Of a DNA stretch of 64,000 bases, positions 4,467-60,476 are shown piece after piece; the stretch's first letter is position 1; each line of letters begins with the position of its first letter. The DNA is taken from the IMG/VR virus record IMGVR_UViG_3300020470_005894, positions 1 through 64,000 of that record; one strand, written 5' to 3'. The notes under the pieces are model-generated. The model did no database searches, was not told where the DNA came from, and saw only the letters and a program-made list of their open reading frames with translations. The stretch comes from a virus. The translations under genes were made by a program, and so were the position numbers.

Positions 4467-4543
4467 TGGCACGCCCGACAGGATTCGAACCTGTGACCCT
4501 CGGCTTAGAAGGCCGATGCTCTATCCAGCTGAGCTACGGGCGC
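4467..4543 (-). tRNA. tRNA-Arg(UCU)
   Basis: GCGCCCGTAGCTCAGCTGGATAGAGCA TCGGC CT TCT AA GCCGA GGGTC ACAGGTTCGAATCCTGT CGGGCGTG CCA; full cloverleaf with encoded CCA. Confidence 0.95.
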
Positions 4544-4704
4544 ATGTATTAATTAACCATGAGATAAACCATCAACGACATGAACCATCCTGATAAAATC
4601 AATGTGGCCAGCAACACTTCAGCAGACGCCTCTGTGTTGTTGTGATTAAATTTTCTTTTAAAGTATTTTCTAATTTTCATAATCTATCTCCAAAGATTTT
4701 GTAT

Positions 4705-4781
4705 TGGTGGGCTCTCTCGGACTTGAACCGAGGACTACCCCGTTATGAGCGGGGGGCTCTAACCAACTGAGCTAAGAGCCC
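4705..4781 (-). tRNA. tRNA with CAU anticodon, most like tRNA-Ile2 (lysidine); Met not excluded
   Basis: GGGCTCTTAGCTCAGTTGGTTAGAGC CCCCG CT CAT AA CGGGG...GGTTCAAGTCC...GAGCCC A CCA; G1-C72 pair argues against initiator fMet. Confidence 0.9.
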
Positions 4782-4788
4782 AAAAAAA

Positions 4789-4875
4789 TGGTAGCCGAGG
4801 CGGGACTCGAACCCGCAAGCCCAAACGGGCGACAGATTTTAAGTCTGTTGTGTATGCCAATTCCACCACTCGGCC
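4789..4875 (-). tRNA. tRNA-Leu(UAA)
   Basis: GGCCGAGTGGTGGAATTGGCATACAC AACAGA CT TAA AA TCTGT, long variable arm, GGTTCGAGTCC, CCA end. Confidence 0.95.
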
Positions 4876-34422: not shown

Positions 34423-37361
34423 TATCTAGGTTTCCCAGGTGTTTGCTGCCAGCCGGTAACTTTTGTTGTGTATGTCCCAGCGCTAAAAGTATTAGTAACA
34501 GTGCCAATCAAATGATAACCACCTAAATTCATTTGATACGCTAAAGAGGACGCGTCTTCAACACTACCTAAGCCAGCCATGCTTGGATTGACATAATAGA
34601 ACATTCCAGGTGTAAATAAGCTATTACCCACCAAATCTAGGTTTGTGTGATAAGGAAACTTTAACTGTTCTAGATTGCTTCCGCCATTTTCTATGGCCTC
34701 TCTGTATCTTGCCTCTGCAAGCCCGGGCAAAGCGACTCTTTCAAAATTCATCTTTGTCAATAGGCCGCGGTCGGATCCAATGTTAAAATGGTATATACCA
34801 TCCTTAAGGTCTTCATTTGGATTCCCTCTTCTGTCGCGAAGATTCTTAACTGTAGTAACATATATTAGCAAATAATCATACGAAGTTTTTATCATTGACT
34901 CGGAAGATTGTCCTTGGCCTAAAGCATTTAGATAAAGTTCTTTAAAAACAGGCCCGTCTACGTCAATAGTCCTGTGTAGTGGTAAAAGTTCTTTTGTTTT
35001 ACCAACCATCCGACCACAAATATTTATTGGTGCTTCGTCGGTTTGCCTACCAGGTAGAGCCATGGCAACAATACTAGACATGCTTTTTGGTAGTCTAATG
35101 CTGCTAGGCATGCCAACACCCATAGCAGGAATAACTAAATCATTGATACACTGAGTTAAAAAGTCACCCAAGGGCATCGACGCTCTTTTTTTTCTAATAA
35201 TTGTTTTTAAAAACCATGCTCTGAAATAATTAAAAGATATTGGAAACTGTGCCAAATTAATAGTTTTAATTTTTCCAGTCTTTTCGTCAAAATATTCTAT
35301 GGGCCCTAATAGTATTCTCATGTTGTTCAGGCCATAATTCAACCCAGCATCCTTATTTAGCTCCCCCTTTTTTTTGTTATAGCCATAGTAAGAAGTCTCA
35401 GTAAATGGTGGGTAAGCGCGATCTGATGTTTGCTCTCCAGAATCATTAGTCTGCACAGAGCCATATTGAAAAAATTCGTCTCCCACAGCGTTAGCATCAA
35501 TCAAATCAAGGGCTTTAAATCCGGCATTTTTACATGCTAATTCTATTATATCTCCCAGGTAAACAAAATAAAATTTATAATTTTCTCCATCAAAATTTAA
35601 AGTCGTTGTTCTGGAGGGGTCTTTTTTCCTATCGCCAGTATTTTTATCAGTTGAACCAGTTTGATTTTCAGATAGAGCGTTGATATCTTGTGCAACTTCA
35701 CTCTTTAAATTGGCATCTGATGATATCAGCTGGTTACATCTACCAACTTTTATTTGTGGTTGCCCCTTGGGGATTGCAGTGGTGCCACCCTCTAGTATCT
35801 GCTGCATCGCTTCTTCGTAGCTAGCTCCTTGATTAGTCAACGACTCTACTGTTTGCTGTCGCTTAATCGGAGTTTCCTCTATCCCACCTAAATGTTTTAT
35901 AACTTCATGCTTGGGTACGTTTATACAAAAAAGCCTAGTTTCTGGAGGTCCGTCGCCTCTCTGATCATTGCCAGTTATTAGTTGGTCAACAAAAGTTTTA
36001 TATATGTCTTTCTTGAACATACCAACTCTTCTGCGCGTTATAGCTAGCATCTTATCTGCATTCGCTTTCTGCTTAAACCACAGATATATTTCTTCACCGT
36101 CTCCAATAATCTTGGTGACTCCCTTCCTTTTTGTTGTGGCTGGCCCACCTGCCTCTTCGAAGACAGAGGAGAACACTAAATCGCTTTCTAATACTTCTCT
36201 TAGCTTTTTTCTAGAAGTGCACTTATCATCTTTGCAGCCGGGCTCGTTTAGTTCCTTATAAAACGAGTGGATCATCGAAATTATTTTATAAATATGCGCA
36301 GGGTTGTTTTTTGGATCTGCTGTTTTGGATATCTGACCTTTCCCTGCCTTTCCCATTCTTCTAGTGTCTTGAAAAATATTAACTTGGTTTGTGCCCACCA
36401 TGGTCTCTAAGTGGCCGCGGTAATTGGCAGTAAGTAAGACTTGACCATCTTCTTGTATATCAAGATTGTAATCAACAAGTGTTAACGAAACAATTGTGTT
36501 TAATTTTTCAATTTCATTAACCATTTTTACTTCTTCTGCAGATAAATTTAAGCTTTGTAGTGCCTGCTTCGATGGCGAGGTATACCCCATGAGCACTTTT
36601 ATGATATAATGTTTGGGATTGTAAGTTTCAGCGTCCTTGACGTATCTTGAGGGTGGCCATAATATTAAATCAACATATCTTAAGCCTCCTTTTGTAAAAT
36701 GAGGCTCACCTGGAGGCTGCGCATTAACGTCTTTCAGAGATTTAAAAATTATACTCATGGAGCACTCTATGTTATTTTCCAATACGCCTAGAGACTCACC
36801 GTCTTGTTTGATTGTAAAAGATTTTAATCCTACATTACGCCAGTTTGGCTTTGTGGTTTCGTGCTTTAGATATTCGCTGACACTTACAACACTACCTAGT
36901 CCAAAACTATCTGCAAATTTAAACTCTTTGTAGCATGGGGTAGGGAGTGGTTCTGTCTTTCCCTGATCTGGGGTACCGTCCTCTGCAAATACTGTTTCTT
37001 CGAAGTTCACCTTATAAATTCTAACTTTTGGCTGCATGAGGGATAAGACTGTATTCTTAATATTATAAAAAACACCTACATTATCAATGCCTCTTAATTT
37101 GTTCACAATTTGCGTACCATCTCCGTTAACTTGCCTGAAGGTCAAATAATTAAACAAGTCTTTTCTTGAGTTATAAAAATTATTAACTTTATCAATATTT
37201 TGACTCAATATGTATTGTTCAATGTTGCCGCGATCACGGTTATCATTTGTTAAATTCTTTTTTCTGCGGATCGTCTCCTCAACAGTCAAGCCTTCACCAG
37301 GCTTAGATATTGAGTCTAAATCGCCCGAACCACCGGGGCTTGTTATATCTTTAGAAGCCAT
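34422..37361 (-). CDS. Probable baseplate hub protein
   Basis: Position after tape measure and LysM-like genes; C-terminal GNSLFTPGMFYYV...GGYHLI..VTNTFSAGTYTTKV resembles a hub fold end. Confidence 0.55.
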   Translation of the reverse strand: MASKDITSPGGSGDLDSISKPGEGLTVEETIRRKKNLTNDNRDRGNIEQYILSQNIDKVNNFYNSRKDLFNYLTFRQVNGDGTQIVNKLRGIDNVGVFYNIKNTVLSLMQPKVRIYKVNFEETVFAEDGTPDQGKTEPLPTPCYKEFKFADSFGLGSVVSVSEYLKHETTKPNWRNVGLKSFTIKQDGESLGVLENNIECSMSIIFKSLKDVNAQPPGEPHFTKGGLRYVDLILWPPSRYVKDAETYNPKHYIIKVLMGYTSPSKQALQSLNLSAEEVKMVNEIEKLNTIVSLTLVDYNLDIQEDGQVLLTANYRGHLETMVGTNQVNIFQDTRRMGKAGKGQISKTADPKNNPAHIYKIISMIHSFYKELNEPGCKDDKCTSRKKLREVLESDLVFSSVFEEAGGPATTKRKGVTKIIGDGEEIYLWFKQKANADKMLAITRRRVGMFKKDIYKTFVDQLITGNDQRGDGPPETRLFCINVPKHEVIKHLGGIEETPIKRQQTVESLTNQGASYEEAMQQILEGGTTAIPKGQPQIKVGRCNQLISSDANLKSEVAQDINALSENQTGSTDKNTGDRKKDPSRTTTLNFDGENYKFYFVYLGDIIELACKNAGFKALDLIDANAVGDEFFQYGSVQTNDSGEQTSDRAYPPFTETSYYGYNKKKGELNKDAGLNYGLNNMRILLGPIEYFDEKTGKIKTINLAQFPISFNYFRAWFLKTIIRKKRASMPLGDFLTQCINDLVIPAMGVGMPSSIRLPKSMSSIVAMALPGRQTDEAPINICGRMVGKTKELLPLHRTIDVDGPVFKELYLNALGQGQSSESMIKTSYDYLLIYVTTVKNLRDRRGNPNEDLKDGIYHFNIGSDRGLLTKMNFERVALPGLAEARYREAIENGGSNLEQLKFPYHTNLDLVGNSLFTPGMFYYVNPSMAGLGSVEDASSLAYQMNLGGYHLIGTVTNTFSAGTYTTKVTGWQQTPGKPR

Positions 37362-48931: not shown

Positions 48932-49756
48932 CTAGACTTCCCAAGCGACGCGAATGTAATTAACTTGAATATTGTTAGTCGCACCGGTTGTCTCTTGGAA
49001 AAGAATTGGCCTTAAGGAACTATCATCTGGAATATTTGAGCTGATAGTTTTAACTAAAGTCATATCTCCAGGTTCAGTACCAGATGCAGCCTGAGAATGA
49101 TAAAGTTTAACTACCGAACCATCCCAGTGAAGAGCCATATTCAGGACATCATTATCAGCAGCATAAGTCAAGGCAGTCGGAAAAGCTGCAGCGATCGTCC
49201 CATCACCATTTTTGTTGTGTGCATACTGAATTGCATCAACGTTATGCGCAGGCTTGACAAATCCAATTCTGTCGGTGCCGCCGCCGGCAGCTTCAAGGTG
49301 AATCGAGTCGACGGTAATAGCATTCTCCGTAACACCGAAAAAGAATTCAGCGTCGTCATGATTTGCGACCTTAATAGAAGCTTCCATCCACCATCTTTTT
49401 GTGCTTGATGCGCAGCTAATCGGCGCAGCATCAAGGCCGATTGCTGTTTGATTTCCTGCAGAGTTGCCACCAGCTAGCTGAATAGAGCCATCTGTAAAAT
49501 CACTATCACTATTAATAGCAGTGACCGCGCCAGAGTTGGCATCGTCAAAAAGCCAGATACCAGTTGTTGCGTTATCAGCAACCGGAAGCAAATCAACCAC
49601 GCCGCCTGCGTGCATTTGTCCCATACATGCGACTTTTAAATTACGGCGCAAGCCAGGCACCATCGGAGGGCGGACATACCCCCACTCATCGTTTTTACTA
49701 CGAGGTACTTCCATAAGGCTATCAAGCCTCCTACGTCCTAATCTTCGACTTCCCAT
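48932..49756 (-). CDS. Virion protein (beta-sandwich, possible head decoration)
   Basis: Basic N-terminus MGSRRLGRRRL and beta-rich body; between capsid and neck genes; late-like promoter. Confidence 0.55.
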   Translation of the reverse strand: MGSRRLGRRRLDSLMEVPRSKNDEWGYVRPPMVPGLRRNLKVACMGQMHAGGVVDLLPVADNATTGIWLFDDANSGAVTAINSDSDFTDGSIQLAGGNSAGNQTAIGLDAAPISCASSTKRWWMEASIKVANHDDAEFFFGVTENAITVDSIHLEAAGGGTDRIGFVKPAHNVDAIQYAHNKNGDGTIAAAFPTALTYAADNDVLNMALHWDGSVVKLYHSQAASGTEPGDMTLVKTISSNIPDDSSLRPILFQETTGATNNIQVNYIRVAWEV

Positions 49757-49775
49757 TTTTTGTTTCTCCTTTTTT

Positions 49776-49878
49776 AAGTTATCGATAACTTGATTTTAAT
49801 CACGAAACATAGCCAGCCACCTCGGCTATGAATCTTCAAGGGTCAGTGGCCCCGACCCGGGAGAATAATTTCAAGTTG
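49776..49878 (-). ncRNA. Structured 5' leader RNA (three-way junction with complementary loops)
   Basis: P1 AACTTGA/TCAAGTT; hairpins GGGTCG-GGGCCAC-TGACCC and CATAGCCG-AGGTGGC-TGGCTATG; competing palindrome AAGTTATCGATAACTT. Confidence 0.55.
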
Positions 49879-49976
49879 TATTATAAATAGTTGATTTAAA
49901 AGTCAAAATCTCAAAAATTAGCAGCGATATTTTTTTGAGTATTCTGATTTTTTAAAGGTTAAAAGTTTTGTGACTT

Positions 49977-50180
49977 TTATTCAGACTCTTCCTCTTCAAC
50001 TGTCTCCTCTGAATCTGATACTTCTTCAGATGATTCTGGGTTAAGGGCAGATAACAAGCCAATTGCTTCTGCTAATAAACCAGCTTCTTCAAGACTAAAA
50101 GCTCCTCTTTTCTGAGCTAGCTGCGCAGCTTGAACCAATAAATCGACAGCTTGTCCCGGTGTTTCAACTCTTTGTGACAT
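49977..50180 (-). CDS. Small conserved phage protein
   Basis: QAVDLLVQAAQLAQKRGAFSLEEA; TTAACA-N17-TATAAT promoter upstream. Confidence 0.7.
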   Translation of the reverse strand: MSQRVETPGQAVDLLVQAAQLAQKRGAFSLEEAGLLAEAIGLLSALNPESSEEVSDSEETVEEEESE

Positions 50181-50311: not shown

Positions 50312-52180
50312 TTAGCTAGAGCCTTCCTCACCGAGGAGGCCGCGGACAACAACAAGACCATACATATCAGGTCGGACCATCTTCTTGGCGTATCGAGTCA
50401 TGACTCCCTTACGGGGCACGAAATCCTCGGTACCGAAGATCGTCGGAGTGACCTGGAGAGGCACATATGGAGCGTAAACATAGCCACTTTCAAGGAAGCT
50501 TCCGCCGCGTCGTCCAACGAGAACGAGATTACGGGGGAAGTAGGGATCGACATATACGTCCCACTTCTTGGAAAGTGAACCAACGTTGACAGCGCCAACA
50601 GAGCCCTTGTCAGAATCATGAGTAATGCTCGCACGGAAACCAGCAGTAAACTCAAGGATATTAGCAACTTCAGGTGACGTCACCAAGAAGTTAGCTCCAC
50701 CGCGAAGAGTTTTTCTGTGAATCTGAGCTGAAACATCATTAATGGTCTCAACAAGAGTCTCATACCACTCGCTAACCGTACCGGTGAAGTCCGGAGCAGC
50801 GGCAGCTGCACCAAGCTCGGAACCAGTGTTACGGCTAACAAACAAACCAGGCGAACGTGACCAGTAGAAAGTACTAGCAGTGGCGCCTTCGATGAGGTCC
50901 TTAACAATCTCACGATCGATCTCAAGAGCAATCTGCTCGGAGAGAATCTGAGTAAGCTCAACCTCGGCGTCGAGGTTGTGGTAAGCGTTGAGGTCCTGAC
51001 CAAGTTCAGGGGTCCACTTAGCTTTGAGCTTCTTCGTCATCGCGGTAACAGCAATGCTGTCGACCTTGATGTCAATCTCAGGAATCTCATCTTTTGCAGC
51101 AGCTGAAGCGCGATTTGTATCCACTCCGGCAGTTGCACCAGCTTCTTCAAGGCCCCAGTTATCAGTTCCCTTAATCGCGCCGAGAGCATCAGCAGTCGTA
51201 AATGCGTCGATCATTGGGTAGGTCAAAAGTAGAGCTGCCGCGTCGATGTCGCCGGCAGTAAGAGCTGAACCCTGCACGTAGAAAGTAATACCGCAGTTGT
51301 TTTTACCATGGTAAAGATTCTCTAAAGTCACACCATTGGAGGCCTTTGTGCCCAGGTGGGTTAACCTACGAAGAATCTTTGCTCCGGTACCAGGAACAGG
51401 CGTACCATCAGCCTCAGTAAGATTGAAAGCACCCATGTTTCTGAAGTTCATTTTAGCAGCCTCAGCAGCAGTAACATGAACAACAACTTCACAAATTTCA
51501 TCAGTAGCCGTGCCTCCTAGGACATCGGGGTCATGACGAATAGCGTTTTTCTGTGCCTCGGTCAAGTTCTGAACCTGAACCTCAGAGCCTGCAAACGCCG
51601 TAAAGCTAGTGTGCGTAGAGCTGAAAGCAGGCGCAGTAGCAATTGTCGCGAAGGTTGTACGAGCACTAGAATCAGCAGCAAGCGCAAGAGCACCAGTCAC
51701 GTGTGAGTAAGCGTTGGAAAGGTCATAGAAACCGCCGCCTTCTTCAGTGATGTCGGAAACACCACCAGTCAGCTGGCTACCAACAACTCCGCCACCATAT
51801 AGCGAGTCGCTCTGATCAATACCGAGACGAGCTGCGGTTTGGTCACTGTACTGGAAATCCAGGAAGAAAATGAGACCGGACGGCAAGCTCATTGGCTGAA
51901 CCGACACGAGATCATTTGCAAGTAGTCCACCGAATACACGACGGACAATCGGGAACGCTACGGAAGCGAATCCCTCAACATCACCAGCTGCCATAGATGA
52001 AGCCTCTTTAAGAAGCTGAGCAGCCTGATTTTCTAATAGACGGGCCATGCCCTGTCTTGAGCTATCGTCTTCAAGACCCTCAAGAAGTCCGGTGCGTTCC
52101 CACTTCTCTAATAGAGCAGCACCTTCTCTCTGGAGGCTTCTTTGTGCGATGCCTTCAGTTAGCTTTTTTAATACAGACAT
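50312..52180 (-). CDS. Major capsid protein (T4 gp23-like)
   Basis: VSVQPMSLPSGLIF, KLKAKWTPELGQDLNAYH.LDAE, EIDREI, YAPYVPL, MTRYA. Confidence 0.97.
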   Translation of the reverse strand: MSVLKKLTEGIAQRSLQREGAALLEKWERTGLLEGLEDDSSRQGMARLLENQAAQLLKEASSMAAGDVEGFASVAFPIVRRVFGGLLANDLVSVQPMSLPSGLIFFLDFQYSDQTAARLGIDQSDSLYGGGVVGSQLTGGVSDITEEGGGFYDLSNAYSHVTGALALAADSSARTTFATIATAPAFSSTHTSFTAFAGSEVQVQNLTEAQKNAIRHDPDVLGGTATDEICEVVVHVTAAEAAKMNFRNMGAFNLTEADGTPVPGTGAKILRRLTHLGTKASNGVTLENLYHGKNNCGITFYVQGSALTAGDIDAAALLLTYPMIDAFTTADALGAIKGTDNWGLEEAGATAGVDTNRASAAAKDEIPEIDIKVDSIAVTAMTKKLKAKWTPELGQDLNAYHNLDAEVELTQILSEQIALEIDREIVKDLIEGATASTFYWSRSPGLFVSRNTGSELGAAAAAPDFTGTVSEWYETLVETINDVSAQIHRKTLRGGANFLVTSPEVANILEFTAGFRASITHDSDKGSVGAVNVGSLSKKWDVYVDPYFPRNLVLVGRRGGSFLESGYVYAPYVPLQVTPTIFGTEDFVPRKGVMTRYAKKMVRPDMYGLVVVRGLLGEEGSS

Positions 52181-60245: not shown

Positions 60246-60476
60246 CTACTTTATATTTAGTTTTTGATTTCTTTCTCGCTCTGCTTTTCTAGCATTGCGC
60301 TTTTTTTTAAGTTTTTCTCTTCTCTTTTTCGCAGAAGGCTTTTCAAAAAATCTTCTATCTAAATAGTCTTCTATTATTCTTTCTTTTTTAACCTTTTTCA
60401 TGAATTTTTTTATAAGACGGTAACCATCGCCTTTTGTTTCTCTTAGAGAAACCTCAACGTTAACTGCTCTTTTCAT
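60246..60476 (-). CDS. rpsU: Ribosomal protein bS21 homolog
   Basis: LIKKFMKKVKKERII......FFEKPSAKKRR matches the S21 signature. Confidence 0.85.
   Translation of the reverse strand: MKRAVNVEVSLRETKGDGYRLIKKFMKKVKKERIIEDYLDRRFFEKPSAKKRREKLKKKRNARKAERERNQKLNIK

Follow-up and report, generated by a model that had tools for sequence, protein, structure and literature searches.

The DNA immediately upstream of the gene at 48932-49756 encodes a genuine new family of structured mRNA leaders. Sequence comparison indicates that uncultured marine phages of the T4-like kind, numbering well over a hundred, have conserved the leader. It most likely sets the output of the next protein encoded in the capsid region. 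Its core is a three-way junction of helices P1, P2 and P3, in which the loops of P2 and P3 are complementary. Folding calculations predict a second structure that pairs the Shine–Dalgarno (SD) sequence of the gene. We consider it probable, though well short of certain, that the leader is a cis-acting two-state element controlling the translation of a late mRNA, whatever its effector may be.

Phages of the Far-T4 type abound in both seawater and fresh water, almost none of them in culture, and we know of nothing established about the regulation of their late genes. Until now, three-way junctions with docked loops have been associated chiefly with ligand sensing. The family described here comprises more than 100 variants, in which three helices and a tertiary loop–loop contact covary. 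It is a candidate orphan riboswitch or a candidate viral protein–RNA feedback module and, as a compact natural bistable leader, it would be open to in vitro tests that need no host.

Layout and genome setting of the leader

The window is the whole stretch of 64,000 nucleotides analyzed here. It is part of a 94-kb IMG/VR record (IMGVR_UViG_3300020470_005894) that is estimated to be about half complete. Crude gene calling placed 59 of 60 genes in the window (1-64000) on the minus strand. The inverted repeats of the leader were also detected mechanically. Every helix that the original prediction had placed in the leader (49757-49890) is present in the minus-strand sequence, and the 7-nt loops said to be complementary do share five complementary nucleotides (GCCAC/GUGGC; Table 1). 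P1 starts 5-7 nt 3′ of a promoter-like motif. The minimum free energy (MFE) of the leader is −36.4 kcal mol−1, compared with −24.1±3.3 kcal mol−1 for 200 dinucleotide shuffles (z=−3.77), none of which was as stable.

Table 1. Positions in the window of the leader elements and neighboring features (sequences are those of the minus strand).
Feature	Position	Strand	Detail
gp23-like major capsid gene	50312-52180	-	PF07068 1.9e-74, phrog_138
Promoter-like motif CTATTTAT	49883-49890	-	Family consensus CTA[AT]TTA[TC]
Sites of CTA[AT]TTA[TC]	53422, 48682, 45998, 42530, 40843, 13317, 11853	-	
P1, 5′ strand AACUUGA	49871-49877	-	Partner UCAAGUU 49787-49793
Possible P1 extension (P1b)	49865-49870 with 49798-49803	-	AAUUAU with GUGAUU
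Anti-SD UUCUCC in J1/2	49860-49865	-	Immediately 5′ of P2
P2 hairpin	49840-49858	-	GGGUCG 49853-49858 with UGACCC 49840-49845, loop GGGCCAC
L2 kissing segment GCCAC	49846-49850	-	Complement is L3 49816-49820
J2/3 UUGAAGAUU	49831-49839	-	
P3 hairpin	49808-49830	-	CAUAGCCG 49823-49830 with UGGCUAUG 49808-49815, loop AGGUGGC
L3 kissing segment GUGGC	49816-49820	-	Complement is L2 49846-49850
P1, 3′ strand UCAAGUU	49787-49793	-	Overlaps 5′ half of P4
P4 hairpin, palindrome AAGUUAUCGAUAACUU	49776-49791	-	Alternative to P1; perfect 8+8 inverted repeat
SD AGGAGAA	49764-49770	-	Core GGAGAA 49764-49769
AUG of downstream gene	49754-49756	-	
Downstream gene	48932-49756	-	274 aa, N-terminus MGSRRLGRRRL

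A scaffold-like gene, the gp23-type capsid gene and a 67-codon acidic ORF precede the leader, in that order. This ORF (49977-50180, minus strand), between the capsid gene and the leader, is an insertion local to this phage. The capsid protein is closest to those of the Far-T4 phages Flavobacterium phage immuto, Microcystis phage Mel-JY01 and Rhodothermus phage RM378, with 41-48% identity. The Far-T4 group has been described (PMC4360716). In relatives of the leader with at least 300 nt of flanking sequence, the major capsid protein gene lies upstream on the same strand, directly before the leader, at all 86 loci. The capsid gene usually stops 62-152 nt 5′ of the promoter motif (83 of 86 relatives are in that range), with a terminator in between. 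In the window, the sequence just 5′ of the motif (49910-49939, minus strand) is an AT-rich inverted repeat, CUCAAAAA ... UUUUUGAG, with AUUUU after it. The sequence TTTTTGAGATTTT is seen again in several relatives, and others carry GC-rich terminators there.

The motif itself was examined in 54 leaders, in which positions C1, T2, A3, T5, T6 and A7 are invariant. It recurs upstream of many of the window's structural genes, 22-55 nt from the ATG, and only at the leader gene is this distance 134 nt. From this distribution, CTA[AT]TTA[TC] is a plausible candidate for the late promoter of the Far-T4-like lineage. The earlier designation as a late motif thus stands as plausible, although the motif as read on the coding strand differs from the T4 late promoter, which is TATAAATA at about −10. 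A leader variant 93% alike, with the SD and AUG GGA AAU, was found in two metatranscriptome runs of one sample; it is a read-length contig that is compatible with DNA carry-over and gives no 5′ end. This variant has a C-G to U-A change at 49830/49808, and its P2 and P3 stay paired.

An SD core is present at −20 to −3 in 63% of the genes, compared with a background of 13%, which suggests that the host probably uses SD-led initiation. We had considered a special SD in an SD-less (Bacteroidetes-type) system, and rejected it because the phage uses the SD at most genes. Elsewhere in the window, an 84-codon ORF (60291-60419, minus strand) resembles bS21 (PF01165) at 25.2 bits, below the 27-bit cut-off; the related Microcystis phage Mel-JY01 has an annotated RpsU in its head module. 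Three tRNA genes are clustered at 4470-4875 (minus strand).

Distribution and covariation

An alignment-driven locus search supplied the starting loci; a query with the single protein gave none. Seven homologous genes start with MGxRR, and the leader is clearly homologous in each. Two DNA-pattern scans of IMG/VR were used, one with one free position per loop and one with both 7-nt loops wholly free. Together they brought the set to 94 distinct homologous leaders. Further copies were found in metagenomes (at least 39 among the matches listed) and by way of the coding sequence (about 24). Conservation in related phages, which had been set as a check on the prediction, is therefore evident. A covariance model matches each of the 94 loci exactly once, with 70-146 bits. 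In each of six phage records it finds a single leader; one of these records is a complete 195-kb genome with terminal repeats. A second, weak match in the window (35352-35408, E=0.38) bears no resemblance to the leader and was dismissed as noise. The effective sequence number of the alignment is 2.55; the leaders are related to each other, so the counts given below are not numbers of independent events.

The searches also gave limits to the distribution. Four cultured or assembled Far-T4 relatives (Flavobacterium phage immuto, Microcystis phage Mel-JY01, RM378 and LR756508) gave no match to the covariance model, and the complete absence of the leader from the cultured ones counts against a two-state control element. 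No relative of the leader gene, as DNA or as protein, is present in the GenBank phage collection. The matches listed from a scan of 185,579 species genomes are chance matches in GC-rich genomes, with no link to a host.

RNAalifold recovers P1, P2 and P3 unaided from a plain MAFFT alignment. In a model-fitted alignment of the 94 leaders (A3), 97.9% of the cells at the paired positions are paired, compared with 86.1% after shuffling and 28-45% with the partners slid. Double changes occur in 13 of 24 pairs, and no measure was reached by any of 500 shuffles or by the slid controls. P3 is the richest in covariation, with five of its eight pairs each doubly changed in 28-48 sequences. In P2, 99.8% of the cells are paired; column pair 40-54, for example, is GC in 65 leaders, AU in 11, UA in 10, UG in 4 and CG in 1. 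P1 has double changes in four of six pairs in A3 and is otherwise mostly conserved, with G-U variation. In two leaders (L005 and L007) the P1 strands are entirely different and are still complementary to each other.

The two loops form four combinations, GCCAC/GUGGC, GCCGC/GCGGC, GCCCC/GGGGC and GCGGC/GCCGC, all of which are complementary. Compensatory changes are thus seen at two of the five positions of the loop–loop helix. Among the genuine copies we found none with non-complementary loops, and two seeming mismatches in A3 come from L005, whose 8-nt loop is misaligned. This covariation is a fair test because both loops were unconstrained in the search pattern. The proposed check on covariation in P1-P3 and in the loop–loop pairs has therefore come out in favor of all three helices and the contact. 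There is also weak evidence for a putative extension of P3, in which GAAG of J2/3 may pair with UUUC (49804-49807). RNAalifold predicts it for 20 type-1 leaders, and one leader (L117) has GGGG with UUCC at this position.

A search of the whole window against Rfam 15 at the gathering score returned three tRNAs only. At E≤10, positions 49600-50100 gave six unrelated sub-threshold matches, of which the best overlapping the leader was freshwater-2 (16.8 versus 49.9 bits). Hence none of the Rfam families already described matches the leader; such a match had been named as an outcome that would refute the prediction. The reading of the leader as an undescribed phage RNA, structural or acting in cis, in which a three-way junction and kissing loops are joined by an alternative fold near the RBS, is upheld: the RNA is conserved, covaries and has no Rfam match. 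A tRNA-like fold was rejected, with no model match and no conserved core. The catalytic core of the hammerhead ribozyme is CUGANGA / GAAA. The hammerhead and other small self-cleaving ribozymes were likewise rejected, with no Rfam match and a J1/2 that lacks CUGANGA.

A survey from 2023 predicted 8,495 unnamed structured-RNA models, averaging 67 nt, that were obtained automatically by covariation from the intergenic regions of IMG/VR (PMC10690425). Its candidates are designated csRNAs "DNAVirus_N", and some lie upstream of phage structural genes (PMC10690425). In the literature, including the text of that survey, we came across no account of the fold, of its kissing loops or of the anti-SD; the leader may already be an unnamed entry in the catalogue of 8,495 candidates (PMC10690425).

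A predicted fold that hides the Shine–Dalgarno sequence

The unconstrained MFE structure of the window's leader does not use P1. It pairs UUCUCC with GGAGAA and keeps P2, P3 and P4. The complementarity UUCUCCU/AGGAGAA is perfect in 65 of the 94 leaders, and the duplex of anti-SD and SD has a mean energy of −10.5 kcal mol−1, versus −3.9 kcal mol−1 with shuffled 5′ segments. P1 and the anti-SD:SD helix cross, and they are therefore mutually exclusive in any nested structure. They could in principle coexist as a pseudoknot. The original prediction had named the palindrome before the SD as the alternative to P1 and had missed the complementarity of UUCUCC to the SD. The palindrome does overlap P1 on its 3′ side; what chiefly competes with P1, however, is the anti-SD:SD helix, and P4 is its companion.

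When either fold was forced on the 94 leaders, the mean energies were −30.2 kcal mol−1 for P1-P2-P3 and −31.9 kcal mol−1 for anti-SD:SD. The difference is 1.6±2.9 kcal mol−1, and the P1 fold is the more stable in 28 of 94. These nearest-neighbor energies leave out the kissing contact and the tertiary structure of the junction. RNAalifold chooses P1 for 62 type-2 leaders and anti-SD:SD for 20 type-1 leaders, the type to which the window belongs.

The case for the fold that hides the SD comes from these energy predictions and from modest covariation at one position, whose carriers are related to each other. The position beside the anti-SD:SD core is U-A in about 70 leaders, C-G in 6, U·G in 15 and C/A in 2. 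CCUCC occurs with GGAGG in 6 of 8 cases, and UCUCC occurs with GGAGG in only 15 of 86. It speaks against this fold that a CUCC near any gene using an SD will look complementary to it. P4 can be formed in every subtype, as GUUAU-UGCA-AUAAC, GUUA-UCGA-UAAC, GGUU-ACGU-AACC or GACC-N8-GGUC, and in nearly all leaders GUU (49787-49789 in the window) is common to P1 and P4. The half-sites GUUA/UAAC are kept, with variable spacing and G-U pairs tolerated. For these two reasons we favor an RNA hairpin for P4 and have rejected a DNA operator.

We propose the following model. The RNA would be the 5′ leader of a late mRNA that is transcribed from a separate promoter immediately 3′ of the major capsid gene, and it would act in cis. 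In state A, which covariation backs, P1 would close the three-way junction, with P2 and P3 lying side by side through five Watson–Crick loop–loop pairs, and the SD would be outside the fold and free. In state B, which is predicted, UUCUCCU would pair with AGGAGAA and hide the ribosome-binding site; P2 and P3 would persist, P1 would be open, and its 3′ strand would close P4. Since the predicted energies of the two states are nearly equal, a modest input could set the share of translatable mRNA. We infer that something recognizing the kissing-loop junction would shift this balance.

Structures of mRNA that hide the SD control the translation of late genes in T4-type phages (e lysozyme, soc, I-TevI). 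In those genes the T4 late promoter lies inside the hairpin, and late transcripts lack its 5′ half. Here, by contrast, the whole structure is downstream of the promoter motif, and control in the style of the T4 e gene was rejected for that reason.

The arginine-rich N-terminus and readings of leader function

The product of the downstream gene has no match in Pfam or PHROG, and 19 metagenomic homologues were found. Its AF2 model has a mean pLDDT of 85.7, and Foldseek relates it to legume lectins and ERGIC-53 (E∼1e-8, TM∼0.5). The body of the protein is confidently predicted to be a ConA-like lectin jelly roll. For other bodies linked to the leader, family matches are weak or lacking. All leader-linked genes start with M-G-x-R-R-[LIM]-G-x-[KR]-R-L, in which x3 is [NS]; R5 is found in 94 of 94 and R10 in 93 of 94. 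The codons vary synonymously, which shows selection on the peptide of this tail. Behind it are at least four bodies unrelated by BLAST, freely mixed across the RNA subtypes. A prohead-protease LxE site after the tail was considered and dropped; it is present in the window's family and inconsistent elsewhere.

A search with the tail-coding sequence gave 60 genuine tail-coding starts, of which 58 have the leader. The other two, on contigs L514 (1252-1696, plus strand) and L537 (17-460, plus strand), are one lineage. They carry the same arginine-rich tail, MGNRRLGLGRLE..., with no leader and with the gene away from any capsid gene. The tail protein of L514/L537 may belong to a longer ORF with a hydrophobic N-terminal extension. 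Because one lineage carries the tail without the leader, the tail has a function independent of the leader, and this may be to attach the protein to the virion.

Among possible effectors we favor a protein, most likely the product's own arginine-rich N-terminus, which would repress its own synthesis once free protein accumulates. We give this autogenous scheme a minority chance. One hint of it is the conserved tail behind all 94 leaders, with unrelated bodies. Another is given by the loci of body homologues with other N-termini (MSQTK..., MATQ...), where the leader is absent and the gene directly follows another ORF. Against it, the L514/L537 lineage has the tail on a homologous protein type without the leader. 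Moreover, tail and leader lie in one conserved block, and their co-occurrence may be explained by linkage. A more specific version, which we regard as doubtful, is a portable cassette: the leader would travel with roughly the first eleven codons (MGxRRxGxxRL), and the nascent or free tail would bind the junction and lock the fold in which the SD is hidden. If so, any recombined body would inherit feedback tied to its unassembled amount. Known autogenous operators (lambda N with boxB of nutL, T4 gp32 with its leader pseudoknot, the MS2 coat protein with the replicase hairpin) likewise have a conserved structure beside the ribosome-binding site, and lambda N is a precedent for an N-terminal arginine-rich motif. 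They differ in RNA fold, the tail here also occurs without the leader, and its binding to the RNA is putative. We give an appreciable minority chance to a two-state leader with no effector, governed by folding kinetics or by fixed tuning.

Were the effector a small molecule, a metabolite bound at the junction would stabilize P1, free the SD and tie synthesis of the virion protein to the state of the host. The leader shares the P1-P2-P3 junction and docked L2-L3 loops of the purine riboswitch (RF00167), especially of the translational add adenine riboswitch, in which formation of P1 competes with sequestration of the SD, as predicted here. Loop and junction nucleotides are strongly conserved, and by prediction two exclusive, near-isoenergetic folds couple a conserved structured domain to the SD, as expected of a riboswitch in general. 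The details are nevertheless unlike. The loop contact consists of five contiguous Watson–Crick pairs, J1/2 is 6-13 nt long and carries the anti-SD UUCUCC whereas the purine J1/2 is short, and junction lengths and sequences do not resemble the purine core. The original prediction had seen no purine-riboswitch core nucleotides, and in agreement neither RF00167 nor any other riboswitch model matches the leader at E≤10. The predicted P1 state pairs most junction residues and leaves mainly the anti-SD single-stranded. The sole gene context is one virion-region gene with a variable body, with no metabolic or transport gene. We therefore judge a riboswitch for a small molecule to be improbable. The leader might instead be constitutive, protecting an abundant late mRNA from decay that depends on its 5′ end or damping translation to a fixed level, with the anti-SD merely tuning initiation. 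Helices at the 5′ terminus stabilize mRNAs, for example in the ompA leader; here P1 begins only a few nucleotides from where the transcript is expected to start, and no effector has been identified. However, one hairpin would suffice for protection or damping. Hairpin lengths, the 7-nt loops, the 5-bp loop–loop helix and the competing hairpin are conserved even though the stems have diverged freely, and a near-isoenergetic pair of folds over 94 variants looks selected. A purely constitutive role thus seems rather unlikely to us.

The three-way junction with two complementary, covarying loops is also the plan of the phi29-family pRNA (RF00044), a phage RNA, and the capsid gene adjoins the leader. 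On such a model, the loops of separate molecules would pair, and the resulting dimers or rings would serve in capsid assembly or packaging. We consider this very improbable. The pRNA is a free non-coding RNA with intermolecular loops that works at the portal of small podoviruses, whereas the present RNA leads directly into an SD and a start codon, and is hence part of an mRNA, in T4-like phages with a gp23-type capsid. There is no match to the Rfam pRNA, and the lengths of P2 and P3 are fixed and similar, as expected of two hairpins that lie side by side within one molecule. To our knowledge, T4-type packaging motors use no RNA. Finally, the conserved sequence could have no function as RNA and reflect DNA-level signals (a promoter, an operator palindrome) or recent common descent. 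P4 is a perfect palindrome in DNA, and the alignment consists largely of close relatives, as its low effective sequence number indicates. We attach next to no weight to this explanation. It is contradicted by compensatory double changes, which number in the dozens across P2, P3 and the loops, by the tolerance of G-U pairs on the leader's RNA strand only, and by the variable spacing of the P4 half-sites, which is ill suited to a dimeric DNA-binding site.

The leader also marks a hot spot of recombination, at which virion-associated proteins unrelated to each other (lectin-like and others) take turns behind it. Bodies of about 190, about 270 and 300-370 aa, as well as singletons, are found at this post-capsid swap site, and the promoter, the leader and the 11-residue tail are constant.
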